Shown here: positions 18,357 to 38,475 of the stretch, piece by piece
How positions within the stretch are numbered: position 1 is the stretch's first letter
How the letters are laid out: each line of letters starts with the position of its first letter
Assembly (NCBI GenBank): GCA_027451865.1
Contig: DAIDHW010000001.1
Coordinates: 905,530-969,529, forward strand
DNA: 64,000 nt
Source of the DNA: Leptolyngbyaceae cyanobacterium clean351
GTDB lineage: Bacteria > Cyanobacteriota > Cyanobacteriia > DAIDHW01
Direction: 5' to 3'
Program-made: the position numbers and the translations under genes
The notes under the pieces: model-generated
What the model was told of the DNA's origin: nothing
Databases searched by the model: none
What the model saw: the letters and a program-made list of their open reading frames with translations, nothing else

Positions 18357-18429
18357 CGAGCATGGAGGGATTCGAACCCCCGACCCTCAGGACCGGAACC
18401 TGATGCTCTATCCACTGAGCTACATGCCC
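18357..18429 (-). tRNA. tRNA-Arg (anticodon CCG)
   Basis: Minus-strand 73-nt cloverleaf: acceptor GGGCATG/CATGCTC, D-arm GCTCAGTGGATAGAGC, anticodon loop TTCCGGT, T-loop GGGGGTTCGAATCCCTC; 3' CCA is not encoded. Confidence 0.85.
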
Positions 18430-21742: not shown

Positions 21743-22885
21743 ATGATCAAAGTATTGGTGATCGACGACGACCCGATCGTACAATTGATCCTCAGTCGGG
21801 CTTTACGTAAGCAGGGCTACGAGGTTTCCATGGCCAGCAACGGGCAAGAGGGACTACTCAAGGCCCGCCAACTCCAACCAGCCCTAGTGATCTGTGACTG
21901 GATGATGCCGGTGATGGATGGTCTGCAGGTATGCCGGCAGATTAAGTCTGACCCCAAACTGTTGACGACCTTCTTTATCTTAGTGACAGCCCGGGGGGCC
22001 GTAGAAGACCGGGTCAGGGGTCTAGACACCGGTGCTGACGACTTTCTTTCCAAACCTATTGAGTTGGTCGAGTTGTGGGCTCGAGTCCGGGCGGGACTGC
22101 GGCTGCACCAGGTTAACCAGGCTCTGCAGGACCAAAAGCAAATTCTGGAAGCGGAACTATCGGAGGCGGCCGACTACGTACGCTCGCTCCTGCCGCATCC
22201 CCTAAAAGGCGAGGTGGAGATTGATACCCGGTTTATTCCTTCCAAACAGCTAGGAGGGGATTGCTTTGATTTTTACTGGCTTAATCCCGATGAGCTAGTT
22301 TTCTACCTCCTTGACGTCTCGGGCCATGGGGTTGGTTCAGCCCTATTATCGGTTTCAGTCCTGAATCTACTACGCTCCCGCGGTCTGCAGGCGGTTTCCT
22401 TTACCAGTCCCGCCAGTGTCCTGACCGCCCTGAACGACACATTTCAGATGTCCCAACATAAGGATTTATACTTCACCATCTGGTACGGAGTCTATCACCG
22501 CCAGAGCCGGGAGCTGGTGTACGCTAGTGCTGGCCACCCCCCGGCGGTTTTTACTACTCCCCAACAAACCGTCTCTCTCAAAACTATTGGCCCCCCCATT
22601 GGCATGCTGTCGGACATCCAGTTTTTCGAAGATGTCTTCCGGATACCGGGTCCGGGTAGCCTCTATGTGTTCAGTGATGGAATTTACGAAATCAATCAGT
22701 CCGACGGCCACGTTTGGGGCCTTAAGGCCTTCACTGAGCTTTTGGCACAGCAAGCCGTGTGTCAAGGCTCTAATCTTAAGCAAATCCTCTACCGCCTGCG
22801 CACGGTCGGTAATCAAACCTCCTTTGGTGACGACATCTCAATTCTGCAGATTAATTTCCCGGGGAGTCTCCCAAGTTTAGGCTAG
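21743..22885 (+). CDS. response regulator with PP2C-type (SpoIIE/RsbU-like) phosphatase output domain
   Basis: Receiver domain (VLVIDDD, LVICDWMMPVMDG, KP) followed by PP2C/SpoIIE-like region (FYLLDVSGHGVGSALLS). Confidence 0.8.
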   Translation: MIKVLVIDDDPIVQLILSRALRKQGYEVSMASNGQEGLLKARQLQPALVICDWMMPVMDGLQVCRQIKSDPKLLTTFFILVTARGAVEDRVRGLDTGADDFLSKPIELVELWARVRAGLRLHQVNQALQDQKQILEAELSEAADYVRSLLPHPLKGEVEIDTRFIPSKQLGGDCFDFYWLNPDELVFYLLDVSGHGVGSALLSVSVLNLLRSRGLQAVSFTSPASVLTALNDTFQMSQHKDLYFTIWYGVYHRQSRELVYASAGHPPAVFTTPQQTVSLKTIGPPIGMLSDIQFFEDVFRIPGPGSLYVFSDGIYEINQSDGHVWGLKAFTELLAQQAVCQGSNLKQILYRLRTVGNQTSFGDDISILQINFPGSLPSLG

Positions 22886-22934: not shown

Positions 22935-24467
22935 ATGACTGCTCCCCATCAGGCCTTCAGTGTTGACTCAGATTTAGGGGAGAAGCCGGAGGAGGCTTGC
23001 GGCGTGTTTGGCATCCGAGCCCCCGGAGAACCGGTGGCTAAACTAGCCTACTTTGGCTTGTTTGCTCTCCAACACCGCGGTCAAGAGTCCGCTGGTATTG
23101 CCACCTTTACCGGGCAAGAAGTGAGCCTGCATAAGGATATGGGTTTAGTCTCCCAGGTGTTTACGGAGCGGATCTTGCAAGCTCTGACCGGGGAGCAGGC
23201 CGTAGGTCACACCCGCTACTCTACCACCGGCTCTAGCCGGGTGGTTAATGCCCAGCCGGTAGTGGTCAACACTAATTTGGGCCCCCTAGCCTTAGCCCAC
23301 AACGGTAACTTGGTTAATACCCAACAGCTCCATGAGGAGTTACGTCAAAGTTCAGAGTACCAGTATCCTGCCACCGCCAGTACCGACTCGGAGCTGATGG
23401 CCTTGGCCATGGCGCAGGAGATCGACCAGGGGGAGGATTGGGTGCCAGGAGTAGTCAAGGCCTTGGGCCGCTACCAGGGAGCCTTTAGTCTAGTGGTCGG
23501 TACCCCAGAGGGGATGATGGGTATTCGCGACCCCCACGGAATTCGGCCCCTCGTAATTGGTACTCTGCCAAACTCCCAGTTTGTCCTCGCCTCGGAAACC
23601 TGCGCCCTCGATATCATTGGTGCTACCTACCTGCGGCAAGTGGAACCAGGGGAGTTGGTATGGATTACTGACCAAGGCTTGGTCTCCCACCGCTGGTCAC
23701 CAGTGGTGCAGCCTCGACTTTGCATATTTGAGATGATCTACTTCGCCCGGCCTGATAGCATCATGCTACCGGAAGAAAGCCTCTACAGCTATCGTCAGCG
23801 CCTCGGGGAGCAGTTGGCTCGGGAAGCCTCGGTAGCCGCTGATTGGGTGATAGGGGTCCCGGACTCGGGGATTCCAGCGGCAATTGGGTTTAGCCGCGTC
23901 TCAGGGATCCCCTACGCGGAGGGATTGGTCAAAAACCGCTACGTGGGCCGCACCTTCATCCAACCAACCCAGAGCATGCGGGAGGCGGGGATCCGTATGA
24001 AGCTCAATCCTCTCAAGGACGTGCTGACCGGCCGGCGGGTGATAATCGTCGATGACTCCATCGTCCGGGGCACTACTAGCCGTAAGATAGTGGCCACCCT
24101 GCGCCAAGCAGGAGCCGCCGAGGTGCACATGCGCATCTCCTCTCCACCCGTCACCCACCCCTGCTTCTACGGCATTGATACCGATAGTCAGGACCAGTTG
24201 ATCGCCGCCACCTGTTCCATCGAGACTATTCAGGCTCAGCTAGAGGTAGACTCTCTAGCCTACCTGAGCCGAGAGGGAATGCTCAAGGCTACCGGTAAGG
24301 ACCAAAACGGTTTTTGTACCGCCTGTTTTGATGGCAGGTATCCCGTAACCATTCCGAAGCAGCTGCAGGGAGCTAAATTGCGCCTTGAAGCCAAAATTGC
24401 TCCCGAAGGACCAGGAAGAACCCCGAGGGACCCCCGGTACGCTCCGGAATTGGCCACCGCCGACTAG
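22935..24467 (+). CDS. purF: amidophosphoribosyltransferase
   Basis: N-terminal nucleophile CGVFGI after a short propeptide; PRTase motif (VIIVDDSIVRGTT); C-terminal Cys cluster. Confidence 0.9.
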   Translation: MTAPHQAFSVDSDLGEKPEEACGVFGIRAPGEPVAKLAYFGLFALQHRGQESAGIATFTGQEVSLHKDMGLVSQVFTERILQALTGEQAVGHTRYSTTGSSRVVNAQPVVVNTNLGPLALAHNGNLVNTQQLHEELRQSSEYQYPATASTDSELMALAMAQEIDQGEDWVPGVVKALGRYQGAFSLVVGTPEGMMGIRDPHGIRPLVIGTLPNSQFVLASETCALDIIGATYLRQVEPGELVWITDQGLVSHRWSPVVQPRLCIFEMIYFARPDSIMLPEESLYSYRQRLGEQLAREASVAADWVIGVPDSGIPAAIGFSRVSGIPYAEGLVKNRYVGRTFIQPTQSMREAGIRMKLNPLKDVLTGRRVIIVDDSIVRGTTSRKIVATLRQAGAAEVHMRISSPPVTHPCFYGIDTDSQDQLIAATCSIETIQAQLEVDSLAYLSREGMLKATGKDQNGFCTACFDGRYPVTIPKQLQGAKLRLEAKIAPEGPGRTPRDPRYAPELATAD

Positions 24468-24551: not shown

Positions 24552-24674
24552 ATGAACGTTAAACTTGTGCTGGTCGGCCTGACTGTGGTTTTTTCCCTGG
24601 CCACTCTCTTTTTCGGCACCCGCAACGGCTTCTACGATACAGATAAGTACCACGGTAATGGCTCTGCTCACTAG
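24552..24674 (+). CDS. small single-pass membrane protein (40 aa), not in the ORF track
   Basis: ATG-initiated MNVKLVLVGLTVVFSLATLFFGTRNGFYDTDKYHGNGSAH; one hydrophobic helix then GTRNGF, loosely reminiscent of the PetN C-terminus (WGRNG). Confidence 0.3.
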   Translation: MNVKLVLVGLTVVFSLATLFFGTRNGFYDTDKYHGNGSAH

Positions 24675-25000: not shown

Positions 25001-26305
25001 CTAGTTATTCAAGTTTAAAAGGGCCCGCGCCACGCTCTTAACGTCTGGGTAGCGCCGGTCCCAACTGGGATGGGTGAGGTTGTAGACTACTGTAGCCATG
25101 CCAGAACTGATTCCAGGTACCGTGTCTACCGCTAACCGGAGCTCCCGGTCGGCAAACTTATAGAATAGGCTGGGCTGCTGACCGGTAAGCAAATAGACTA
25201 GGGTTGGTCCGAGGGAGTACAGGTCGGAGGCAGGCAGGGGGTTACCTTCCTGTTGTTCGGGAGCCATATAGGCGGGTAGACCAACCTGGGTACCGGTTAG
25301 AGTGGTTGAAACTCCCCCCTGTAACCCTACTAGGGCAACCTCTTGGCCCTCCGGAGGATTGGCGCGTAAGATAATATTGGCAGGGCGGATATCTTGGTGC
25401 AAAACCGGCGGGGATTGGCTGTGTAGGTAGTCGATGATTTCGCACACCCGCAGCATCAACCACACCACCTGGGGTTCAGACCACCTACCCTTTTGGGCCA
25501 CTAACTTTTCCAGGTCATGGCCGTAGACCATCTCCCGCAATAGGTAGGGCTGTTTGTCCGCCCAAAAATAGTCGTGCAGATGGGCAATCCCCCAGTGGTT
25601 CAACCCCTGGAGAATCCTCGCCTCCTGCTCAAGGATGGCTTGGGCGCGGGGGTCATCTGACCATTCGGCGTTGAGGGTTTTGAGCACCCTGCTCTGACCG
25701 TTGAGCCATACTAGGTAGTTGACATTAAGGCTACTGCGCATCAAGGTCTTGAGCACCTGATGGTTAGCAATGGTCTGGCGGGGTTCGAGGGGCTGGCCAC
25801 AGTTGAGGCAGAAACTCAATACATCCCGCCCTGGTAGGTGGTCACAAACCCAAGCTGGAACCTGAGTCTGAAGGAGGGATGGGGAAATTCTAGGGGAGGG
25901 GGCCGGGGTAACCGGGGGAGCTAACTCTGGCTCAGTGCGGTGAACTTCCGAGGGGCGGGGCGGCGGGGCGGGAGTCTGAGTTTCCGCCGCCGGTTTAGAG
26001 CCCTGGGGATTCAAGGAGATTTGCATGCTCGGTCCTGAACGAGCCAGTCTGATTACCATGCCGTCGGTTACTGCCAAGGAGTGGATTTGCTCTCCCTCCA
26101 CGTAGGTACCGTTGGCTCCCAAGTTGACTACCTCCCAGCCCTCCCCCATCCGCCTGACTTCCACATGGGAGCGCGAGACCACAGCACTGTACAGGACCAC
26201 ATGGTTATGGTCAGAGCGACCGATTCGGATCACCGACTCATCGGTAAAGGTCCAATTCTGAACTGGGGTATTCTTCAGGGGGTGTAACAGAGTTAGGGTA
26301 ATCAC
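25001..26305 (-). CDS. FHA domain / zinc-ribbon / protein-kinase-like (probable pseudokinase) protein
   Basis: N-terminal FHA motifs (IRIGRS...SRSHVEV...NGTYVEGE), Pro-rich linker, Cys cluster (CDHL...CLNCG), then kinase-like fold with HQDIRPAN in place of HRDxKxxN, no GxGxxG loop, no DFG, but APE retained. Confidence 0.7.
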   Translation of the reverse strand: MITLTLLHPLKNTPVQNWTFTDESVIRIGRSDHNHVVLYSAVVSRSHVEVRRMGEGWEVVNLGANGTYVEGEQIHSLAVTDGMVIRLARSGPSMQISLNPQGSKPAAETQTPAPPPRPSEVHRTEPELAPPVTPAPSPRISPSLLQTQVPAWVCDHLPGRDVLSFCLNCGQPLEPRQTIANHQVLKTLMRSSLNVNYLVWLNGQSRVLKTLNAEWSDDPRAQAILEQEARILQGLNHWGIAHLHDYFWADKQPYLLREMVYGHDLEKLVAQKGRWSEPQVVWLMLRVCEIIDYLHSQSPPVLHQDIRPANIILRANPPEGQEVALVGLQGGVSTTLTGTQVGLPAYMAPEQQEGNPLPASDLYSLGPTLVYLLTGQQPSLFYKFADRELRLAVDTVPGISSGMATVVYNLTHPSWDRRYPDVKSVARALLNLNN

Positions 26306-26310
26306 GTCAT

Positions 26311-26943
26311 CTAGGGGAGTTGAAATAGAAAGGTGACTAAACTACCCTTGCCCAGGGCAATACAGTCCCCCGAACGGAGGCGATGACGGTTTCCAGGTAG
26401 GAGAGGCAGACCATTAATATAGGTGCCATTGGCACTCCCTGAATCCTCCAGGAAATAAGCATCACCTTCAACCCGGATGTCAGCGTGGACTCGGGAGACT
26501 ACTTCCGAGTGGGGAAAGCCAGAGACATCAATGTCTGGCGGAATACGATCGTTGGGCTTGCCAATATGAATTACGTCTAGGCCTGAGGGCAGCTCGATAG
26601 TGGTGTTGGTTTGGACATGGCACAGACGCGCCGTCCCCATCTGCAGTTGGGTTTTCTCAATGTGAGTCGGCTCGTGGGGAGCGGGGAAGGCCTGGGAAAG
26701 AGTCTCCCGGGGGTCAACCACAGGGGGTTCCGCCGGAGGGGCTGGGGTGGCAGGTACCGACACCGGAGAGGGCATAGCCGGGGGCTGCAGATTAGCCCCA
26801 CACTGGCCACAGAAGCGAGCATCAGTCTGGACTGGGGCTTGACATTGGGGACAGGTGGCTAAGGCGGGCAACGGGGCATAACACTGTTCGCACTGTACTG
26901 CCCCCTCAGGATTTTCGTGATTGCAACTATTGCAAATGGTCAT
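26311..26943 (-). CDS. zinc-ribbon / Pro-rich / FHA domain protein (FraH-like architecture)
   Basis: N-terminal double Cys-pair zinc ribbon (CNSCNHE...CEQC...CPQC...CGQCG), Pro-rich linker, C-terminal FHA domain (SRVHADI...SANGTYING); 5 bp downstream gap to the preceding gene. Confidence 0.7.
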   Translation of the reverse strand: MTICNSCNHENPEGAVQCEQCYAPLPALATCPQCQAPVQTDARFCGQCGANLQPPAMPSPVSVPATPAPPAEPPVVDPRETLSQAFPAPHEPTHIEKTQLQMGTARLCHVQTNTTIELPSGLDVIHIGKPNDRIPPDIDVSGFPHSEVVSRVHADIRVEGDAYFLEDSGSANGTYINGLPLLPGNRHRLRSGDCIALGKGSLVTFLFQLP

Positions 26944-27172: not shown

Positions 27173-29818
27173 TCAGTAAAAGTCATCGTTTCCCGACTGT
27201 TGCTCAAAGATCTGGAGCTGCTCAGGGGGACAGACCGGTTCCTGAGGGTCGCCAGAGGGCACAATTCTCCGTAATCCTACGGAAATCTTACTGTGTCTCT
27301 CGATTTGGCGCAGGACCTGGCGGGCCCGACTAATTACCTGGGGAGGTAACCCGGCTAGGCGTCCGGCCTCAATACCGTAGGAACGTTGGGCCCCTCCGGG
27401 CTGGACTCGGTGGAGAAAGACAATTTGGTCTGGGAGCTCCTGAACGGTGACCTGATAATTGGCGACCGTGGGTAGGAGGTTGGTCAGCTCATTCAACTCG
27501 TGGTAATGGGTGGCAAAGATTGTACGGGCCTGAATAGTCAGAGCCAGGTGCTCCGCCACAGCCCAGGCAATAGAGAGCCCATCAAAGGTAGCGGTGCCCC
27601 GGCCAATCTCGTCTAGAAGCACCAGGGATTGGGCAGTGGCGTGGTTGAGAATATTGGCGGTTTCGTTCATTTCCACCATGAAGGTAGATTGGCCGGTAGC
27701 TAGGTCATCCACCGCCCCCACTCGGGTAAAAATTCGGTCGCAGATGCCTAGGGTGGCACTCTGGGCCGGCACAAAGCTGCCTACCTGGGCCAGCAGTTGG
27801 ATCAGTCCGACCTGGCGTAGGTAGCAACTCTTACCACTGGCGTTGGGACCGGTCAGGACAATTAGATTAGGCTGCTCACCGAGGTACGTGGAGTTGGGGA
27901 CGAACAAACCCGCTGGTAAAGTCTGCTCCACCACCGGGTGGCGGCCAGCCTGCAAATTTATTTCCCGACCCGGCACCAGACGGGGGCGGCAATAGTCCTG
28001 GGCTAGGGCTAGTTCGGCTAGGGCACAGAGCACATCCACTGCTGCCACGGCCTGGGCTGTGTCTCGGATCAAGTCTGCCTGGTCGGCTGCTTCCTGGCGC
28101 AGGGCCGTGAAGATCTCGTACTCTAGCTGTTGAATATCAGCCTGAGCCGTAAAAATGCGCGCCTCCCGTTCCTTTAGGTCGGGGGTAATGTAGCGCTCCT
28201 CCTGGGTGAGGGTTTGCTTACGAATGTAGTCAGTCGGCACCTGGGAGGCCTTGGTCCTAGACACACTGATGTAGTAGCCAAAGGCCTTGGTAAAGTTGAC
28301 CTTAAGGGTGCTGATGCCGGTGCGCTGACGCTCTCGCACCTCTAGATCGGCAATCCACTGCTGGTCTTCAACTACCTGGCGGCGTTTCTCGTCTAACTGC
28401 GGGTGCACCCCCGGGCGGATCAGGTTGCCCTCCTTCAGGTGCAGGGGGGGGCTTTCTACCAGGTGAGCCCTCAGGCGCTCCCCTAGGTGAGTCAGAGCAG
28501 GGGGGACCTGCTGAAGGGCCTGGAGGTAGGTAGTCTCTGCCCCCTGGACTAGGCTAGCCAGGTTAGATAGCCTGATGAGGGAGCTGGCTAGGCCTACTAG
28601 GTCCCGGCCGTTAGCGGTACCCGACCCGGCCCGGCCCGCCAAGCGCTCTAGATCGTAGATCTGAGTAAGCTGCTGCTGAAGACTCTGGCGCCGGGAGTTG
28701 TCAGCGATCAGTTCAGCGATAGTCGCCTGACGAGCTTCAATCGCCGGGATCGCCAGGAGGGGTTGTAGTAACCACCGGCGCAGAGCTCGGCCCCCCATGG
28801 CGGTCACAGTCTTGTCCAAAGCCCAGAGGAGAGAACCGGAAAAACTGCCATCCCGGACTGTCTGGGTGATCTCCAGGTTGCGCCGGGTTTGGTAATCCAG
28901 GATCAGATAGTCCGTGAGGATGTAGGTGCGGGGTAATTGTAGAGGGACTTGAGTTTGCCGCTGGGTGTCCTGGAGGTAGTTGAGTAGCCCCCCCGCCGCC
29001 CGCACCGCTAGGGGCAGATGTCCACAGCCAATCCCCTCCAGGGAGCGCAGCTGAAATCGGCTCAGGACCTGGTCGCGGGCTCGCGGTAACCGGAATTCCT
29101 CCTGGGGACGCAGGGTGTAGCAAAACTGACTAGGCAGGCAAGGGAGGAGGTGGTCTGTACCTTCCCCGGGCCGCCACAACCCCACTAGGTCCGGAGTCGG
29201 ACTAGGGAAAAGTACCTCAGCAGGCTGTAGACGAGTTAACTCTCCCGTTAAACCATCAAGGAGGTCAGCCTGGGTGGCCCAAAACTCCCCAGTGGAAATG
29301 TCCGCGTAGGCTAGCCCCCAGTGGTTACCAGTAATCACCACTGCCGCGAGGAAGTTATTTCGGCGAGCGGGCAACATCCCCTCAGCTAACACCGTCCCCG
29401 GGGTCACTACCCGCATTACTTCCCGTTTCACTAATCCCTGAGCTAGGGCTGGGTCTTCCGCTTGGTCGCAAACGGCTACAGCGTAACCGCGCTCTACCAG
29501 TAGACTGCAGTAGCGGTCTAGGGCGTGGTGCGGCACCCCGGCTAGGGGCACTTGACCAACTTCCTCACCAGCGTGCTTGCCAGTCAGGGTCAGCTCCAAC
29601 TCCCGAGCGATAGTGACTGCGTCTTGAAAGAAGGTTTCGAAGAAATCCCCCACCCGGTAAAACAAGATCGCTTGGGGGTGCTGGTCCTTAGTCTCCACGT
29701 AGTGACGCATCATCGGTGTCAAGTCTTGCCGGTTGACAGACCGATGGTCGGCGTAGCGCACTGTGTGTTTGGCCAGTCGGGGCGGGAGGTCCGGGGGAGG
29801 AGCAGTCATGGTAGCCAT
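27173..29818 (-). CDS. mutS: DNA mismatch repair protein MutS
   Basis: MutS N-terminal mismatch-binding region (TPMMRHY...[15 protein letters not shown]) and Walker A ([10 protein letters not shown]). Confidence 0.9.
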
Positions 29819-29833
29819 TCTACCAAAAGACCC

Positions 29834-31378
29834 CTAACTACTGGAGCTGGGAGCCCGGTCTAGGGTGCGGTATTGGAGGGCTTCCGCCACATGGGCAGTT
29901 TGCAGCTCGGGGGAGTCAGCTAGGTCAGCAATGGTGCGAGCTACCTTGAGCACCCGGTCCGTAGCTCGGGCGGAAAGGCCCAGCCGCCGGACTGCGGTTT
30001 CAAGGACTGTCTGGGCGCTGGCCTGGAGAAGACCTAGGGAGCGCAGGTGCTGACTTTGCATATCGGCATTACAACGCAGGAGGCCCCCCTCCTGGGCAAA
30101 CCTAGCCAGGGAACGCTGACGAGCCATCTCTACTCTTTGCCGCACTAGGTCAGAGCTCTCCCCTTCACTATCTCGGGTAATCTCCTCTGGTTTGAGGCGG
30201 TTGACGATCACCTGCAGGTCAATCCGGTCCATCAGAGGCCCCGATAGCTTGGACCAGTACTGCTCCCGTTGGCGGGGACTACAGGTGCAGGGTTGGAGAG
30301 AGTCCCCGTAGTAACCACAGGGACAGGGATTAGTACTAGCCACCAGGGTAAACTTAGCCGGGAAAATTACTGACTGGCGGGCCCGGGCGATGGTGACAAA
30401 GCCGTCCTCTAGGGGCTGACGCAACACCTCGAGCACCTCACGCTTAAACTCCGCCATCTCATCCATGAACAGTACTCCCCGATGGGCTAGGGAGATTTCT
30501 CCGGGCCGTGGGAAGCCACCCCCCCCTACTAAGGAAGGCCCAGAGGCGGAGTGGTGGGGACTGCGAAAGGGACGCTGGGTGATCAGGTGTCCTCGCTCCT
30601 TGAGCAGGCCGGCGGCTGAGTAGATTCGACTCACCTCTAGGGCCTCGAGAAAAGCCAAGGGAGGCAGAATACCCGGTAATCGCCGGGCGAGCATCGTCTT
30701 GCCACTCCCCGGGGGACCGACAAAAATCAGGTTATGCCCCCCTGCCGCCGCAATTTCCAGAGCTCGCCGGGCTAGGGCCTGACCCTTAACATCCCGTAGA
30801 TCCCCCGAAGCTGGGGCAGCTGGGGCAAGGATTAGTCGGGGGTCAAGCCGGACTGGGGTGTGCCGCTCAGGTTCCTGACAGAACTCCACAACTTCCCCGA
30901 GGTGATGGAAACCATAGACTGCTAAGTCCTCTACCGCTGCTGCCTCTTGGGCATTACCAGCGGGTACCACCAGACCACGCATCCCCAGTTGCCGAGCACA
31001 GGCAGCCACGGCCAGGACTCCGGCCACTGGCCGCAGACTTCCATCGAGGGACAACTCTCCCAAGAACAGGTAGTCACCGAGAAATTCTGGATTTAACTGC
31101 TCTGAGGCAGCCAGGATCCCAATACTGATAGGCAGATCGAAGCTGGGTCCTTCCTTGCGCAGGTCGGCCGGGGCCAGATTAACAACAATCCGCCGCAGGG
31201 GGAAAACATAACGGGTATTCTTCAGGGCAGCCCTGACTCGTTCCCGAGACTCTTGGACGGCAGTGTCAGGGAGACCTACCACCACAGTGGCCGGCAAGCC
31301 CCCTGACACATCTACCTCTACCCCTACTTTGACCGCATCAATACCCAGGAGAGTGGCACTCCAGACCCGGGCTAGCAT
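29834..31378 (-). CDS. YifB/ComM-family Mg-chelatase-like AAA+ ATPase
   Basis: Lon-like N-terminal domain, Walker A (GPPGSGKT) and C-terminal Cys-rich region (NPCPCGYYG) typical of YifB. Confidence 0.85.
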   Translation of the reverse strand: MLARVWSATLLGIDAVKVGVEVDVSGGLPATVVVGLPDTAVQESRERVRAALKNTRYVFPLRRIVVNLAPADLRKEGPSFDLPISIGILAASEQLNPEFLGDYLFLGELSLDGSLRPVAGVLAVAACARQLGMRGLVVPAGNAQEAAAVEDLAVYGFHHLGEVVEFCQEPERHTPVRLDPRLILAPAAPASGDLRDVKGQALARRALEIAAAGGHNLIFVGPPGSGKTMLARRLPGILPPLAFLEALEVSRIYSAAGLLKERGHLITQRPFRSPHHSASGPSLVGGGGFPRPGEISLAHRGVLFMDEMAEFKREVLEVLRQPLEDGFVTIARARQSVIFPAKFTLVASTNPCPCGYYGDSLQPCTCSPRQREQYWSKLSGPLMDRIDLQVIVNRLKPEEITRDSEGESSDLVRQRVEMARQRSLARFAQEGGLLRCNADMQSQHLRSLGLLQASAQTVLETAVRRLGLSARATDRVLKVARTIADLADSPELQTAHVAEALQYRTLDRAPSSSS

Positions 31379-31461
31379 GAAACCATAACTCTACAACCCT
31401 TGGCAGTTACTAGTCAGGTATTATAGTGCACGTTTCCTGTCTAGCTACCTTCCTAGAGTGA

Positions 31462-31683
31462 CTAATCGTAGACGTAGTGGCCGGGAACCCAGTGACCGTA
31501 GACATAGCGGCCAGGAACCCAGTGCCGACGAGAGTAGCAGTGGCGGGGGACCCAGCGGCCATTGACGTAGTGACCGGAGGTACAGTAGGCAGCCGCATCT
31601 GCTGGGGCAGGTCTCACTAAGGGCGCCATCCCCATAACTCCCACCAGGGCTAGGGCAACAGAAAGTTTTCGCCAAGCGTGCAT
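31462..31683 (-). CDS. small secreted Cys-containing Tyr/Trp/His/Arg-rich protein, paralog of 31863-32153
   Basis: Signal peptide ending PAPADAAA; mature about 41 aa with C-x3-GH...GRWVPRHCY core and internal HWVPG repeats. Confidence 0.45.
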   Translation of the reverse strand: MHAWRKLSVALALVGVMGMAPLVRPAPADAAAYCTSGHYVNGRWVPRHCYSRRHWVPGRYVYGHWVPGHYVYD

Positions 31684-31862
31684 CGGTTCTGACTCCTAAA
31701 GTTTGCGGATTACTATCCCCTTAAGGCCAAGAAGAGGGGGCCCGAGGGTAGAGGATATGCCTCGACTGAGGGCCAGAATACCTGGCCTTAATTGCTTTAC
31801 CTAGCTTAGGGATACCGCGGCAGGAAGGCTGCTTCCCGAAACCGGGCGGACCGGGTCTCTCG

Positions 31863-32153
31863 CTAGTTATTATCAACTAAGTGGTTGACCAGGATGCGCA
31901 CCCCATTGCGGACTACCCAACGAGCCGGGAACCAGTTGCGGTCATCGTTATAGTAGGGATGATCCCAACGCCAGTCCGCTCCCGCGTTGTAGAAGTCGTA
32001 GTAGCAGTGCCTCGGGATCCAAACCCGGCCAGGGCCAAAGTGCCCCGGCACACAGGTGTCGGCAGCCGCCGGAGCAGGGTTAACGAAGGGAGCGATACCA
32101 AGAGTGGCACCAATTAAAGAAAGGGAAACAGCAATTTTTTTCCAGTTATTCAT
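31863..32153 (-). CDS. small secreted Cys-containing aromatic-rich protein, paralog of 31462-31683
   Basis: Signal peptide ending PAPAAA; shares C-x-PGH...GR-W-(V/I)-PRHCY with its neighbour. Confidence 0.45.
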   Translation of the reverse strand: MNNWKKIAVSLSLIGATLGIAPFVNPAPAAADTCVPGHFGPGRVWIPRHCYYDFYNAGADWRWDHPYYNDDRNWFPARWVVRNGVRILVNHLVDNN

Positions 32154-32236
32154 GGTCTCACCATCCCCGTAGGGTGTACGCTAAACTATTTGACTAGTTT
32201 CCCAACTTGGGAGTTCAATGGGACCCGACCCTAGCT

Positions 32237-33874
32237 ATGGTTGACACTTTCCTGACTGACCCTCCCCTTGATGAGGAGCTCAAGGTTGCGGTGCAAGCCC
32301 GCCGCAACTTCGCGATTATTTCCCACCCGGATGCGGGAAAAACTACCCTGACGGAGAAGTTACTGCTGTACGGGGGGGCAATCCACGAAGCAGGAGCTGT
32401 AAAAGCCCGGCGCGCCCAGCGGCACGCCACCTCCGACTGGATGGAGATGGAACAGCAAAGGGGGATCTCCATCACTTCGACCGTGCTTCAGTTTGCCTAC
32501 CAGGGTTACCAAATCAACCTCCTTGACACCCCCGGCCACCAGGATTTCAGCGAGGACACCTACCGGACCCTGGCCGCAGCGGATAATGCTGTGATGCTCA
32601 TTGATGCCGCTAAGGGCCTAGAACCCCAAACCCGCAAGTTATTTACCGTCTGTCAGCTGCGGGGGTTACCGATTTTCACCTTTATTAACAAGATGGACCG
32701 CCCTGGTCAAGACCCCCTGGCCCTCCTCGATGAGATCGAACGAGAGCTCGGCTTGCACACTTACCCGGTCAACTGGCCCCTGGGTACCGGAGACCGCTTC
32801 CAGGGGGTCTACGACCGGCAGAGGCATCAGATACATTTGTTCGAGCGCTCGATCCATGGGCGACGGGAGGCAAGTGAACAGGTCATTGAACCAGACGACC
32901 CCCAGATCGGCCAGCTAGTAGACCCCTGGCTGTGGTCCCAGTTACAGGAAGACCTAGGACTTTTGGAGGGGGCGGGCACCAGTTTAGACCTAGAGGCAGT
33001 GCATCGGGGCCAGATGACCCCCGTCTATTTTGGCAGTGCCATGACCAATTTCGGGGTGGAACTGTTCCTGCGTTCCTTTCTAGAGTTGGCGTTGCAACCG
33101 GGGGCTCACCTGAGCTCCCGGGGGGAAATTGCCCCTACCTATCCGGAGTTTAGTGGGTTCATCTTCAAGCTCCAGGCTAACATGGACCCCAAACACCGGG
33201 ACCGGGTTGCTTTTGTGCGCGTCTGCTCAGGCAAATTTGCTAAGGACATGCTAGTCAACCACGCTCGCACCGGTAAGTCCATCCGGCTCTCCCGGCCGCA
33301 GAAATTGTTTGCCCAGGACCGAGAGTCAATTACTGAAGCCTACCCGGGGGACGTAATTGGCCTGAATAACCCCGGGATGTTTGCCATTGGGGACACGGTG
33401 TACACCGGCCAGAAGCTTGAGTACGCTGATATTCCTAGCTTCCCTCCGGAGTTATTTGCCTACCTCAAAAACCCCAACCCCTCCAAGTTCAAACAATTCT
33501 CCAAGGGAGTAGCTGAGCTGCGGGAAGAGGGGGCAGTGCAGATTTTCTACTCCCTAGACGAGGCCCGACGGGACCCGATCCTAGCTGCAGTCGGTCAGCT
33601 GCAGTTTGAGGTGGTACAGTTTCGTCTCCAAAACGAGTACGGGGTTGAAACTCTCCTAGAACCTCTCCCCTATACTATTGCCCGCTGGATAGCCGGGGGG
33701 TGGGAGGCTCTCAACCAAGTTGGTCGCCTGTTCAATAGCCTCACCGTCAAGGACCGCTGGGATGAGCCAGTACTTTTATTCCGCAACCAATGGAACTGTC
33801 AGCAGGTAGAAGCCGACCACCCCGAATTGAAACTGCTAAGCATACGCGACAGCACCCCGGTCCCGAACCAGTAA
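32237..33874 (+). CDS. prfC: peptide chain release factor 3
   Basis: GTPase motifs ([24 protein letters not shown]) and RF3-like length. Start at internal ATG; ORF extends to 32207. Confidence 0.85.
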
Positions 33875-34344: not shown

Positions 34345-35703
34345 TTAAGTTGACTCGGGGATCGACGGCGCAGGCTGACCTGTTTCGACCAGAAAAGCCG
34401 TGCAATTGTTGGTAAGAACAGCAATTAGGGGATGCCAGCCCCAAAAAATTCCCCCGCAAACTACTACCAAGTTGGGCAGCCAAATCAGAGCCGCATTACT
34501 CTCAATTCTCCCTAAGGCCCGTCGGGCTAAGGTAATACCCTTAACCAAGCTCATTAACCCCGGCTCCAAGAGGGTTACAGCCTCGGGTAGCCCATCTTGG
34601 GTATCCGAGTGCAATCTGAGGATAGTCATCGGGGATTCGGCATGGGGGTCGGCATGGATATAACCTACTAGGGCCAAGTGATGGCCGTGCTCAAGTAGAT
34701 TGTGCTCCAGGGGGGGGGTAACCGTGCTCAGGCAGCGGACCCCCAAATCCCCAAGGGCCGCCAGCTCCCCTGGGGTGGTGGGCTCAGCCAACACTAGGGT
34801 GTCAAGGCGCGCCAGCATCTCTAAGCTGCGCCCACTGGGGATATAAATTCCCGCCTCTACCCCTTCTAGTAAGGCATTGAGGAGTATCCCAGCCATACTA
34901 GTTTGGATACCACTGCCGAAATCTAACTGCAGGGGGGCCAAAGACCGGCCCAAATTGCCAGTAAGGATGAATATGGTGCCACTAAGGGCCAGGGTGGGGA
35001 GGACGGCGCTGTGACTCAGCTGAGCTTGCCAGGTGCCAAGCTGGGTGTCATAGACCGGTTCCCGGGTCAGCAAGGTCAGAGCTAACTGCCGCCGCGGACT
35101 GGAGGGCAGGTTCTGCCAAGCCCGGTAACGCTCGTGACTAGTTTCCGCCCGCAGGTTCCGCCGGCCCCCAGCCAGGGCGGTTTTAAAAGCCGGTGCCAGG
35201 TACTGCCCCTGGAGGGTGTGCAACCCCATCCATAGGCTGTCTAGGACATCAATGCTCGGACTACCGCGGACAAAGGTGCTTTCTAAGGCCCGGGCGATCC
35301 AGGGTTGGGCTGCCCCGGCGATCACTATCCCCAACACCAGGGAGGGGACCTCGGCGACTGTGGCCACCAGGGCAAGGGTGACACTGAGCCCCGGCAAGAG
35401 CAGATGTTGCCAGTCGGTGGTCTGGGGCCGGTCAAAGGGGTCGGTCGTCTCAGCGGGCTCCCAATGCCAGTCTCCCCCCCAATCTCCCACCACCACCAAA
35501 CTGAGGACAAATTCTGGGGTAAACTTTTCCTCCGCGTAGGTGAGCACCAGGGACCCCGCCGCCGGATTAACCCGCACGCTCTCGAAGATAGCCAGACTGG
35601 CCAAGCCATGACGCAGCCAGGCCCCGTAGTCTTGATTGTTGACTAGGGCTGGGATACGCAGGCGCAGGCGGCCGGGGATGTTATGGGCGACTTCGTATTC
35701 CAT
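34345..35703 (-). CDS. membrane protein, possibly a degenerate P-type-ATPase-like protein
   Basis: N-terminal HNIPGRLRLRIP motif, hydrophobic helices, and regions loosely resembling the P-type ATPase P-domain without DKTGT or GDGxND; low-confidence reading. Confidence 0.4.
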   Translation of the reverse strand: MEYEVAHNIPGRLRLRIPALVNNQDYGAWLRHGLASLAIFESVRVNPAAGSLVLTYAEEKFTPEFVLSLVVVGDWGGDWHWEPAETTDPFDRPQTTDWQHLLLPGLSVTLALVATVAEVPSLVLGIVIAGAAQPWIARALESTFVRGSPSIDVLDSLWMGLHTLQGQYLAPAFKTALAGGRRNLRAETSHERYRAWQNLPSSPRRQLALTLLTREPVYDTQLGTWQAQLSHSAVLPTLALSGTIFILTGNLGRSLAPLQLDFGSGIQTSMAGILLNALLEGVEAGIYIPSGRSLEMLARLDTLVLAEPTTPGELAALGDLGVRCLSTVTPPLEHNLLEHGHHLALVGYIHADPHAESPMTILRLHSDTQDGLPEAVTLLEPGLMSLVKGITLARRALGRIESNAALIWLPNLVVVCGGIFWGWHPLIAVLTNNCTAFLVETGQPAPSIPEST

Positions 35704-35818: not shown

Positions 35819-36856
35819 CTAGGAGCGCCGCCCCCGCCGCCACCCGAAAGCTAAGCCCACGAGGACTAGATAAACCACCAGGCTCACCTCAACTTGTCTA
35901 GGGGACCGAGGGCCGAGGAACCGCTGCCAAGGGACCTGGGGTAATTCCAGAGAACTGGTAGTGAACCGAAAGTTACGGGTGAAAACCTGGTCATTGATAG
36001 TCCCCACCAGATAAACCGTGTAGGTGGTGTCAGGGTGCAGGGGGGCCGGGGGGAAGGCGACCCCATGGTAGGGCATCAACTCGTGATTCGCGTCGTGAAC
36101 TGAGTCCAGTAAGGTCAAGTTAGTGGTGATTTGGTCCGGGGCGGTAACGAAACCACCAGTCAAGGTGAGGTGGTCAGTGAGATTGCCGACAACAACTATC
36201 GGGGTGCCCAGGGGGTCAACACTAGTGTCAATGCCTAGGGGCTCCGGGTACTCATGGCCTAAGGATTGGTAGGGCACATCTACGGCACCCTGACAGGGAA
36301 ACGTCAAGGGTACCTGACCGAAAGTAGTGACCACAGGACCAATCCCCAGGTCTATGACGGTGTCCAGCCGGGCAACTTCTGCCGCCGCGGTGATACCAAT
36401 CCCCACATCCACATCCGCAGGGGTCATTAGCACCACGGCATGGTAGGGGACACTGATAAGGCCATCTATTTGGCCCGCCCCACCCCCGGGGGTATCCGTA
36501 GTGACTACCTCCCCTACGGTGCTGGCGGATTGATAGCCAGCCTTGATAGCCCGGTCATTGGGGGTAAGACCGTAGTAGTCCCGAGCCCTGGGGTTTTCAA
36601 TATGGGTAATGCCATGGGCGCGGACGTAGGTGACATGGGCAGAGGCCGCCAGATCCAAGTACTGATTTTCTCGCAGAGCTGTTAGTCCGCACTGCTGCCG
36701 CAGCCCATTCAACCGCTCTAGTGCCAAGGCAGACTGGTTAGGGTTAGCCGAGGGATAATTGGGCCCTTGGCAGCCGACTAAGACCGCAGCCAAGCTGCCT
36801 ACCAGAACTAGGGACCAGTTGACCCCCCTAGGCAGCCAGTCTAAGGCAAATTTCAT
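35819..36856 (-). CDS. putative lipoprotein / cell-surface protein with C-terminal membrane anchor
   Basis: Signal peptide with lipobox-like LVGC, beta-rich Gly/Thr/Asp-rich body, C-terminal hydrophobic helix plus basic tail (WRRGRRS). Confidence 0.45.
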   Translation of the reverse strand: MKFALDWLPRGVNWSLVLVGSLAAVLVGCQGPNYPSANPNQSALALERLNGLRQQCGLTALRENQYLDLAASAHVTYVRAHGITHIENPRARDYYGLTPNDRAIKAGYQSASTVGEVVTTDTPGGGAGQIDGLISVPYHAVVLMTPADVDVGIGITAAAEVARLDTVIDLGIGPVVTTFGQVPLTFPCQGAVDVPYQSLGHEYPEPLGIDTSVDPLGTPIVVVGNLTDHLTLTGGFVTAPDQITTNLTLLDSVHDANHELMPYHGVAFPPAPLHPDTTYTVYLVGTINDQVFTRNFRFTTSSLELPQVPWQRFLGPRSPRQVEVSLVVYLVLVGLAFGWRRGRRS

Positions 36857-36985: not shown

Positions 36986-37735
36986 TTAGTCTACAGGGAT
37001 ATCCCGCCGGCTCCAGGCAAGATAGACGACAAACAGGACTATAAGGGTAGTCAGTCCTAGGCTGACTAATCCGGAGCTATAGCCTAGCCCCCCCACAGCC
37101 TCCGGTTTATCAGCCCAATCAGCAAAGGAAGCTCCGAGGGGCCGGGTCACTACGTAGGCTGACCAGAAGGCTGACACCTCGCTCAAACCTCCCCGCCAAT
37201 AAGCCCAGCCCGGCAGGGCAAAGAGGACCGCAAATAGGACCCCAGAGCCTAAATAGCCAAGGTTAAAGGTCGTGGCAGTCAGGTCCCCCGCTGCTGTCCC
37301 TAGGGCGAAGGTAGCCAGCACCGTCCCCCAGTAAAAGGACTCCCGGCGGGGGGTATAGATGCTGTGAATGGACAGGGTTTTTTCGGTGCGCCTCCACATA
37401 ACCAATACCCCCGCTAGGACGAGGGCAAAGCAGGTGGTGGAGGCAAGGTAGGGGACTCCCAGGACAACGTGGATCACGTCCGCCACCATGGTGCCAAAAA
37501 TGCTGACCATGACCACTAATAACCAGTAAACCCAGGCCACGTATCGACGCACGGCAAACTGCAACCCCAGGGCAGCCCCAAACCCGACCCCCCCTAAGAT
37601 CACAGCTAGGTGAGGATCCAAGTGAAATACCAAGTAATCTGAGGTTGCCTCACCCATGGCTGTGCTCAGGATCTTCACAATCCAGAAGTACACTGTCACC
37701 TCAGGAACCTTGGCATGCTTTCGGTTTTGGCTCAT
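36986..37735 (-). CDS. polytopic membrane protein, hypothetical
   Basis: Multiple hydrophobic helices; start at internal ATG (MSQNRK); ORF extends to 37837. Confidence 0.5.
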   Translation of the reverse strand: MSQNRKHAKVPEVTVYFWIVKILSTAMGEATSDYLVFHLDPHLAVILGGVGFGAALGLQFAVRRYVAWVYWLLVVMVSIFGTMVADVIHVVLGVPYLASTTCFALVLAGVLVMWRRTEKTLSIHSIYTPRRESFYWGTVLATFALGTAAGDLTATTFNLGYLGSGVLFAVLFALPGWAYWRGGLSEVSAFWSAYVVTRPLGASFADWADKPEAVGGLGYSSGLVSLGLTTLIVLFVVYLAWSRRDIPVD

Positions 37736-37869
37736 ATTCTCTGTCCTATGCAGGGTCTCCTGTGGTTTAGGCGGGGTAACCTTTCCCTTAGACTCTCCCC
37801 GGCTCCTCCGGGTGCCTGACCCCAGGACCACCAACATTCCCTAGAATAGGAGAACCCTTCTGAAATCCG

Positions 37870-38475
37870 ATGGCTTGGAAGATGGCTTGGAAGACTTCTT
37901 TAGTTAACTTATCCTGGATTCTCCTAGCTAGTGGGGCCCTCTGGCCCCCAACAAGCTTAGCCAAAACCCCCACCCCCTCCCCCTGTAGTCAATCACCCCA
38001 AGACTACCTGCAAAGTTACCAGACCAAGCCCTCCCCCCTGGCCATGGTTTGTTTCCAGTACGCCCTCCAGCGGGACCCCCAGTCCTATCCCGATGTGCCG
38101 GCCTCAACTCTGCCGCCGCCAGGGGACCAGGTGATCGATATCTTTGGCCAGCGGCTCAAAAATAATAAGCTCATTTATCGGGAGCATTGGCAACCCCTGC
38201 CAGGCTTCCCACATTTGTACTATGATCCGGCATCCGTGTCTCCCTACTACCCCCAGGGAGTGCCAATGATTCAGATCATGGGGACTTCCACCCTCGGAAG
38301 TAATCCCTACAAGGTGGCCATGACTGTCAACTGCCGGCAACGGACCATCACCTACGAGGCTGTGGCCCGCCGCTACACCCGTATCTACGACTACAGTTCC
38401 CGGTACCATATGGCGGGGGACTTTGCCCCCGAGGCAGTTGACCAACTTTGTCGCGCTCTTTTGTCTCCTCCCTGA
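37870..38475 (+). CDS. secreted hypothetical protein
   Basis: Signal-peptide-like N-terminus (LSWILLASGALWPPTSLA); Pro/Tyr-rich mature part. Confidence 0.4.
   Translation: MAWKMAWKTSLVNLSWILLASGALWPPTSLAKTPTPSPCSQSPQDYLQSYQTKPSPLAMVCFQYALQRDPQSYPDVPASTLPPPGDQVIDIFGQRLKNNKLIYREHWQPLPGFPHLYYDPASVSPYYPQGVPMIQIMGTSTLGSNPYKVAMTVNCRQRTITYEAVARRYTRIYDYSSRYHMAGDFAPEAVDQLCRALLSPP

Follow-up and report, generated by a model that had tools for sequence, protein, structure and literature searches.

The 64,000-nucleotide stretch of Leptolyngbyaceae cyanobacterium clean351 analysed here and called the window (assembly GCA_027451865.1, contig DAIDHW010000001.1, forward-strand positions 905,530 to 969,529) contains two adjacent minus-strand genes, referred to as orf96 and orf73, which lie between comM/yifB and prfC. 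They encode paralogous small proteins with predicted Sec export signals and a shared pair of cysteines, and the mature part of the shorter one consists entirely of tandem aromatic-rich units. The two minus-strand open reading frames (ORFs) of 73 and 96 amino acids (aa) that the first-pass annotation had placed here do exist, with precisely those ends. The features of the pair, in window positions and with lengths in nucleotides (nt) or residues, are the following.

31863..32153, minus strand: orf96 coding sequence (96 aa plus stop; NCBI-called protein P0001), with a predicted signal peptide, a putatively Cys-stapled core, a divergent aromatic/acidic middle and a predicted C-terminal hairpin; translation (32153..31863) MNNWKKIAVSLSLIGATLGIAPFVNPAPAAADTCVPGHFGPGRVWIPRHCYYDFYNAGADWRWDHPYYNDDRNWFPARWVVRNGVRILVNHLVDNN
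31462..31683, minus strand: orf73 coding sequence (73 aa plus stop; NCBI-called protein P0002); translation (31683..31462) MHAWRKLSVALALVGVMGMAPLVRPAPADAAAYCTSGHYVNGRWVPRHCYSRRHWVPGRYVYGHWVPGHYVYD
32061..32153, minus strand: predicted orf96 signal peptide, residues 1-31 (MNNWKK / IAVSLSLIGATLGIAPFV / NPAPAAA, next residue D), from sequence reading and hydropathy; putative cleavage placed by the -3/-1 A-x-A rule
31588..31683, minus strand: predicted orf73 signal peptide, residues 1-32 (MHAWRK / LSVALALVGVMGMAPLV / RPAPADAAA, next residue Y), from sequence reading and hydropathy; cleavage site putative
32004..32054, minus strand: orf96 conserved core, C34-VPGHFGPGRVWIPRH-C50, from the paralog alignment and motif scan
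31537..31584, minus strand: orf73 conserved core, C34-TSGHYVNGRWVPRH-C49, from the paralog alignment, motif scan and AlphaFold2 (AF2); putative disulfide
31467..31587, minus strand: orf73 repeat array of four tandem 30/33-nt units, from repeat finders
31693..31697, minus strand: Shine-Dalgarno sequence AGGAG, 9 nt 5' of the orf73 ATG, from sequence reading
32157..32168, minus strand: weaker purine-rich ribosome-binding stretch GGGGATGGTGAG, 5' of the orf96 ATG, from sequence reading
31684..31862, minus strand: orf96-orf73 spacer of 179 nt, without an Rfam match and without significant RNA structure (z = -1.3)

Coding status and relatives of the pair

The paralogy proposed in the first-pass annotation is borne out by BLASTP, in which the two proteins match each other with E=1e-17, far beyond chance, at 41% identity overall, a value that rises to 50% in a MAFFT alignment. 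The 36 positions that are invariant between them are clustered in the signal peptide and in the segment C-x3-G-H…G-R-(V)-W-(V/I)-P-R-H-C-Y. This shared core had also been recognised beforehand; the pattern C-x3-GH followed by PRHC[YFW] proves to be confined, within the window, to the orf96 and orf73 sites.

At the nucleotide level, synonymous sites are saturated, with a proportion of synonymous differences (pS) of 0.70 versus a nonsynonymous proportion (pN) of 0.31, and different codons are used at 21 of the 36 residues identical in both proteins. In the first 52 columns of the alignment, which are well aligned and comprise 49 codon pairs, the differences at codon positions 1/2/3 number 17/10/26. 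The combination of saturated synonymous sites with lower replacement change indicates an old duplication, after which purifying selection has kept both copies. Furthermore, the named frame gives the best codon log-odds among the six frames in both ORFs. The log-odds themselves (-0.12 and -0.01) are lower than the +0.25 mean of long genes, which is attributable to the odd amino-acid composition of the products. It can be stated with high confidence that orf96 and orf73 are real genes.

The opposite view, according to which the ORFs are spurious and their likeness stems from a duplicated non-coding or regulatory DNA segment, could draw on these low log-odds and on the fact that homologues are found nowhere else. 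It is given hardly any credence, because the protein is conserved despite the saturation of synonymous sites, the differences follow the codon-position pattern described above, the named frame outscores the other five, the signal peptides are intact in both ORFs and a Shine-Dalgarno sequence is present. An Rfam search of the region and the spacer returns no family, and RNA folding of both shows no significant structure. A non-coding element as the identity of the pair was consequently rejected, since it is contradicted by the substitution pattern.

No homologue of either protein is detectable in the collections searched. Pfam and NCBIfam scans at E<=10 return noise only (Hydant_A_C, YcgN), and PDB sequence searches at E<=10 give no match for either protein. 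In a word-indexed search of 5.8 billion clustered proteins only self matches are retrieved, each product being a singleton from one NCBI contig, while a profile search with HMMER, run exhaustively over 1.84 billion representatives, yields the pair itself and P0003. The latter, a eukaryotic SINA-like protein of 773 aa, was judged a spurious relative, as its E=3.7e-6 is the sum of five weak matches. P0003 contains a six-fold exact repeat of a RING segment of ~50 residues ('IAPLVHP…CRRGH…GR') and is probably an assembly or gene-model artefact. A metagenome scan with profile-derived patterns, located in the signal peptide, reveals no relative, and the three matches to a metagenome DNA pattern for G-R-W-(V/I)-P-R-H-C-Y all fall in stop-broken frames and represent chance. 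At 80 comM loci, tblastn with the small proteins produces noise only (best E 0.23) and motif scans find nothing. The comM loci of ~45 cyanobacterial relatives contain no small-protein homologue and in none of them is prfC adjacent to comM, so that synteny is of no use here.

These results have to be read against the position of the host. The best matches of its ComM protein among 185,579 species genomes show 69-76% identity, the protein is a singleton at 90% clustering, and it places the host with cyanobacteria of the Leptolyngbya/Nodosilinea/Prochlorothrix type; the lineage is poorly sampled and has no close sequenced relative. Since a fast-evolving repeat protein of 41-65 residues needs fair similarity to reach E<=0.001 at this library size, "no homologue" means "none detectable". 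The term "family", used in the first-pass annotation, covers exactly two members in one genome. The same annotation had named a lack of conservation in related genomes as a ground for dismissing the pair, and none is indeed seen; this is not decisive, because the paralogs show mutual purifying selection and the nearest sequenced relatives are distant.

Predicted exported products and their repeat units

By inspection and hydropathy, both N termini show the features of Sec signal peptidase I substrates, which have a basic n-region, a hydrophobic h-region of 10-18 residues and small residues at -3/-1: basic residues (WRK in orf73, WKK in orf96), a hydrophobic core with a 12-residue Kyte-Doolittle mean of 2.38 and 2.12 in orf73 and orf96, respectively, and the A-x-A sites …PAPADAAA before Y (orf73) and …PAPAAA before D (orf96). 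Cleavage is expected after the Ala run in each protein. The signal peptide had been described earlier as ending in PAPA(D)AAA; its Sec parts are present in both proteins, but the Asp is placed inside the Ala run in orf73 (PAPADAAA) and after it in orf96 (PAPAAAD). Three other identities were weighed and rejected. A lipoprotein processed by signal peptidase II is incompatible with the absence of a lipobox [LVI][ASTVI][GAS]C, the first Cys being preceded by A-A-Y and A-D-T; a twin-arginine translocation (Tat) substrate, with the absence of RR from residues 1-10 of both proteins. A type IV pilin-like protein was likewise set aside.

The predicted mature orf73 product has 41 aa, a mass of 5.07 kDa, a pI of 9.45 and a net charge of ~+4. 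It contains 5 His and 2 Cys, aromatics make up 24%, and W/Y/H/R/G/V/P account for 83% of its residues, in agreement with the composition noted for the shorter ORF at the outset. The predicted mature orf96 product is larger (65 aa, 7.9 kDa) and close to neutral (pI 7.1, net charge ~0), with 7 Asp offsetting 7 Arg. In a diderm cell, a Sec-exported protein stops at the periplasm or the thylakoid lumen and does not leave the cell unless a further step follows. Because the host cyanobacterium is diderm and possesses thylakoids, the earlier designation "extracellular" is unsupported, and the periplasm or the thylakoid lumen is the probable destination of both products.

Mature orf73 consists wholly of four tandem units of 10-11 residues, YCTSGHYVNG, RWVPRHCYSRR, HWVPGRYVYG and HWVPGHYVYD, which follow the pattern x-W-V-P-G-H-Y-V-Y-G. 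The third and fourth units match at 89% of DNA positions (Tandem Repeats Finder score 95). The HWVPG repeats reported for this ORF are therefore present, as parts of a 30-nt (10-aa) array that covers the whole mature peptide, including the Cys core. Consequently, PRHCY is not a separate domain, since it coincides with the first two unit copies, in which one Trp and one Tyr position have turned into Cys.

The register of the first units suggests a hairpin. With a two-residue turn at N41-G42, as read from the sequence, the pairing i+j = 83 would set C34 opposite C49 in orf73, and in orf96 a three-residue turn of the G-P-G type would set C34 opposite C50. The AF2 model of orf73, computed from an alignment of two sequences only, predicts strands at residues 33-40 and 43-51 flanking N41-G42, with a predicted local distance difference test (pLDDT) score of 71-79 over residues 31-50. 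The orf96 model is informative only towards the C terminus, where it predicts a hairpin at residues 43-51 and 54-59 of the mature protein, and a Foldseek search of the AF2 models against the PDB returns nothing at E below 5. Taken together, the conserved Cys pair and its spacing fit a stapled hairpin, so that the disulfide stabilisation suggested in the first-pass annotation is plausible, and it can reasonably be inferred that the first hairpin is closed by a disulfide and followed by further hairpin units.

Proposed role and competing explanations

The explanation favoured here, with a probability of roughly 0.4, is a composite one: orf96 and orf73 would encode Sec-exported, non-enzymatic proteins built from hairpin repeats, with an envelope-binding or structural role. 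Two real, anciently duplicated genes of a filamentous-type cyanobacterium would supply small Sec-exported proteins, from which signal peptidase I, cutting after the Ala run, would release a basic 41-aa orf73 peptide and a neutral 65-aa orf96 protein. They would reach the periplasm or perhaps the thylakoid lumen, and each would be composed of short strand-turn-strand units of the G-(H/R)-(Y/W)-V-x-G-(H/R)-W-V-P type. In the first unit pair, two residues would have become Cys facing each other across the hairpin (C34/C49 around N-G in orf73, C34/C50 around G-P-G in orf96), and the oxidising compartment would staple this hairpin by a disulfide. The orf73 product is likely to have originated through repeated internal duplication of the 10-residue unit. 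Since both products are too small and too repetitive, they are not considered to be enzymes. A flat face of stacked Trp, Tyr, His and Arg side chains would instead serve a non-catalytic binding or structural function at the envelope, with an envelope glycan, peptidoglycan or an outer-membrane protein as candidate partner. The mode of action would be that thought to apply to small exported WXXGXW/BcpO-like repeat proteins, to which the pair may be very distantly related, as a Cys-bearing form with a shorter period.

The link to WXXGXW/YXWGXW repeat proteins (PF12779) was picked for testing from the word W-V-P-G-H in orf73. A consensus-like control sequence matches PF12779 at E=1.2e-19, and a search with it leads to 628 family members, of which those listed have 57-98 aa (most ~95 aa) and carry a signal peptide or lipobox, then an APPP linker and then the repeats. 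Some of the listed members bear the names 'YXWGXW repeat-containing' or 'BcpO-related WXXGXW repeat protein'. A custom hidden Markov model (HMM) built from 30 members scores mature orf73 at 14.8 bits; among shuffled sequences, 3 of 3000 with the composition preserved and 2 of 3000 with the repeats preserved score as high. Furthermore, hhalign assigns the pair, with signal peptides, a probability of 79% over 13 columns, and WVPG[HR]Y, exactly as in orf73, occurs in 26 of 120 listed WXXGXW proteins. Neither protein reaches the Pfam gathering threshold of 18 bits for PF12779. The likeness is thus weak and dependent on residue order; it appears real at the level of motif and architecture and sub-threshold at that of the family, where distant homology and convergence are indistinguishable. 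The earlier statement that no known homologue is obvious holds for curated families and large databases, in which no match is significant, and is qualified by this sub-threshold similarity to PF12779.

Several observations weigh against the envelope-binding explanation and the kinship that accompanies it. The PF12779 model itself gives no match at E<=10 with the full-length proteins, with mature orf73 or with a doubled orf73 tail; the custom HMM gives orf96 4.0 bits (p ~0.045); and the hhalign probability is 23% for the mature pair. The mature part is Cys-free in 114 of the 120 listed WXXGXW proteins, and the repeat period is 10 residues in orf73 versus ~13 in the family. Taken as wholes, the AF2 models reach a poor mean pLDDT, 55 for orf73 and 53 for orf96. 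In addition, the p value of ~0.001 for the likeness is post hoc, and convergence on a short hairpin motif explains it equally well.

The functions offered in the first-pass annotation, metal binding, adhesion and signalling, are all conjectural. Among the competing functions, a periplasmic metal-binding peptide pair has the most to recommend it, although it is unlikely: C-x3-G-H and R-H-C, together with the extra His of orf73, would chelate Cu, Zn or Ni in a buffer or chaperone role. The abundance of His and Cys in mature orf73 (5 and 2 per 41 residues) and the invariance of C34, H38, H48, C49 and one tail His between the paralogs are in line with such a function, as is the gene for an HMA_2-domain protein 2 kb away (34345-35703). 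Between this gene and the pair, however, lie prfC and a DUF3181 gene, and the HMA_2 gene is part of a different unit. A regular hairpin register, as deduced from the sequence, would also direct H38 and H48 to opposite faces, C-x3-H…H-C does not correspond to any recognised signature of a metal site, orf96 keeps only 3 His and is Asp/Asn-rich, and no Pfam or NCBIfam metal-binding family is matched by either protein. Somewhat less likely still is an orf73 peptide of the host-defence or allelopathic type that damages the membranes of competitors, with the neutral orf96 product as partner or antagonist. The basic character of orf73 (net charge ~+4, pI 9.45), its 24% aromatics and the single Cys pair stapling the predicted hairpin would suit a membrane-active peptide, and fast evolution, lineage restriction and recent internal duplication are common in antagonism genes. 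In a diderm cell, however, a peptide that takes the Sec route arrives in the periplasm, and the neighbourhood contains neither an outer-membrane export route nor an ABC exporter or immunity gene; moreover, orf96 is not cationic, the paralog core is under purifying rather than diversifying selection, and bacteriocin families in Pfam and NCBIfam give no match.

A further proposal, improbable to a slightly greater degree, is that the pair represents a previously unseen cyanobacterial class of Sec-exported, disulfide-stapled beta-hairpin-repeat peptides that arose independently of WXXGXW proteins through amplification of the 10-residue unit; in this view the cationic 41-mer would act on membranes or the envelope as an effector (allelopathic/antimicrobial, or a metal-responsive envelope modulator), with the neutral 65-mer as its partner. 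Precursors of a cross-linked peptide or cofactor, such as Trp/Tyr/His cyclophanes among the ribosomally synthesised and post-translationally modified peptides (RiPPs) or a quinone-cofactor peptide, are suggested by the great abundance of Trp, Tyr and His and by the repetition of short motifs. This origin is very improbable, since the N terminus is a classical Sec signal and not a RiPP leader, and the surrounding several kb (~5 kb in the case of a maturase) encode neither a radical-SAM enzyme or another maturase nor a protease or transporter. The rest of the probability falls to functions outside the explanations listed.

If the envelope-binding hairpin-repeat explanation is true, the pair would exemplify how amplification of a hairpin unit of 10 residues can build and rebuild a small exported protein, and would extend WXXGXW-like repeat proteins into cyanobacteria in a Cys-stapled, shorter-period form. 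The 41-residue mature orf73 product is small enough for synthesis, which makes its disulfide, fold, metal binding and antimicrobial activity directly testable. Otherwise, the pair is another lineage-restricted orphan of the kind common among small secreted proteins, and no long-standing question is opened by it.

Genomic surroundings and comparison with known systems

Downstream of the pair, on the same strand, lie comM/yifB (29834-31378) and then mutS (27173-29818), while prfC (32207-33874) is divergent and upstream of orf96. The neighbours mutS, comM and prfC are housekeeping genes, and no maturase, exporter or immunity gene is found nearby. The longest prfC ORF begins with TTG at 32207; an in-frame ATG at 32237 (MVDTFLTD…) is the likelier start, and with it the divergent intergenic region between orf96 and prfC would measure 83 nt instead of 53 nt. 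The stop codon of orf73 and the start of comM are also separated by 83 nt, and this gap contains a perfect TATAAT at 31425..31420 (minus strand), 42 nt upstream of the comM ATG, so that comM probably has its own promoter. The same gap contains a promoter-like TTGGCA-16-TATAGT at 31400-31427 (plus strand; 10/12 matches), which would run antisense into orf73. A promoter/terminator scan of the region reports no minus-strand site.

Elsewhere in the window, a 40-aa ORF, MNVKLVLVGLTVVFSLATLFFGTRNGFYDTDKYHGNGSAH, at 24552-24674 (plus strand) has one predicted membrane helix and no Pfam match, and may be a small membrane protein or a chance ORF; it is situated just after a glutamine amidotransferase/phosphoribosyltransferase gene (22935-24467). 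A response-regulator/SpoIIE phosphatase gene occupies 21743-22885. Two adjacent signalling genes at 25001-26943 (minus strand), adjoining mutS, encode a Ser/Thr protein kinase of 434 aa with an FHA domain and a double-zinc-ribbon/FHA protein of 210 aa. On the other side, the gene at 34345-35703 (minus strand) encodes a 452-aa protein whose sole domain match is an N-terminal HMA_2 (heavy-metal-associated 2). Neighbouring it are two ORFs without a Pfam match, at 35819-36856 (minus strand, 345 aa) and 37870-38475 (plus strand, 201 aa), with a DUF347-repeat membrane protein encoded at 36986-37837. The only RNA gene found in the window is a tRNA-Arg(CCG) at 18357-18429 (minus strand), and the cyanobacterial HIP1 palindrome GCGATCGC occurs once in the 64 kb, approximately the chance expectation.

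With respect to known systems, mature orf73 resembles the hairpin antimicrobial peptides arenicin, tachyplesin and protegrin, as well as the pediocin-box hairpin, in being short, cationic and aromatic-rich with one Cys pair that would close a predicted hairpin. Sec-dependent class II bacteriocins, like orf73, carry a Sec signal and not a double-glycine leader. In contrast to these peptides, to which it has no sequence relation and which are eukaryotic or Gram-positive, the pair includes a neutral member, orf96, and has no immunity or export gene among its neighbours mutS, comM, prfC and DUF3181.

BcpO is the sole studied member of the WXXGXW family. Class I BcpO is a predicted outer-membrane lipoprotein of 73-74 aa, required in Burkholderia thailandensis for BcpA-dependent autoaggregation and full contact-dependent inhibition, and its partner is an outer-membrane-secreted protein (PMC3415462). 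By description it is similar to the orf96/orf73 pair in being small, exported and without similarity to characterised proteins, and its role is to assist an envelope protein in a non-enzymatic way (PMC3415462). It differs from the pair in being a lipoprotein encoded in a two-partner-secretion operon (the Burkholderia bcpAIOB loci), and no TpsA/TpsB-type genes flank orf96 and orf73.

As for the WXXGXW family as a whole, the names 'WXXGXW' and PF12779 turn up in the literature solely within a list of repeat families without a structural template (PMC8078820); 'YXWGXW' is found in no paper. The listed members with a named organism belong to Acidobacteria and Burkholderiales, with no cyanobacterial one among them. 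In Paraburkholderia flava (GCA_004359985.1; L087 4001-6080), the same strand carries, after a bona fide WXXGXW gene, an ORF of 37 aa, a sigma factor of the ECF (extracytoplasmic function) type, an ORF of 140 aa and a periplasmic protein of the Metal_resist family (PF13801), which hints at an envelope-stress or metal setting for that member; the context of an Acidobacteria WXXGXW gene is unrelated.

The differences between the pair and this family concern the period (10-11 residues and not ~13), the last Trp of the motif, which is replaced by Tyr or Cys, the conserved Cys pair, and the absence of a lipobox, many WXXGXW members being lipobox lipoproteins. The shared traits are small size (70-100 aa), an N-terminal export signal followed by a short Ala/Pro linker, which in the pair is the PAPA(D)AAA segment preceding the repeats, tandem W/Y/H/R/G/V/P-rich units containing W-V-P-G-H-(W/Y), and stand-alone genes in unrelated contexts. 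The orf96/orf73 pair is best described as a variant, with a short period and a putative Cys staple, of the small exported proteins with aromatic hairpin repeats for which WXXGXW stands as the type.

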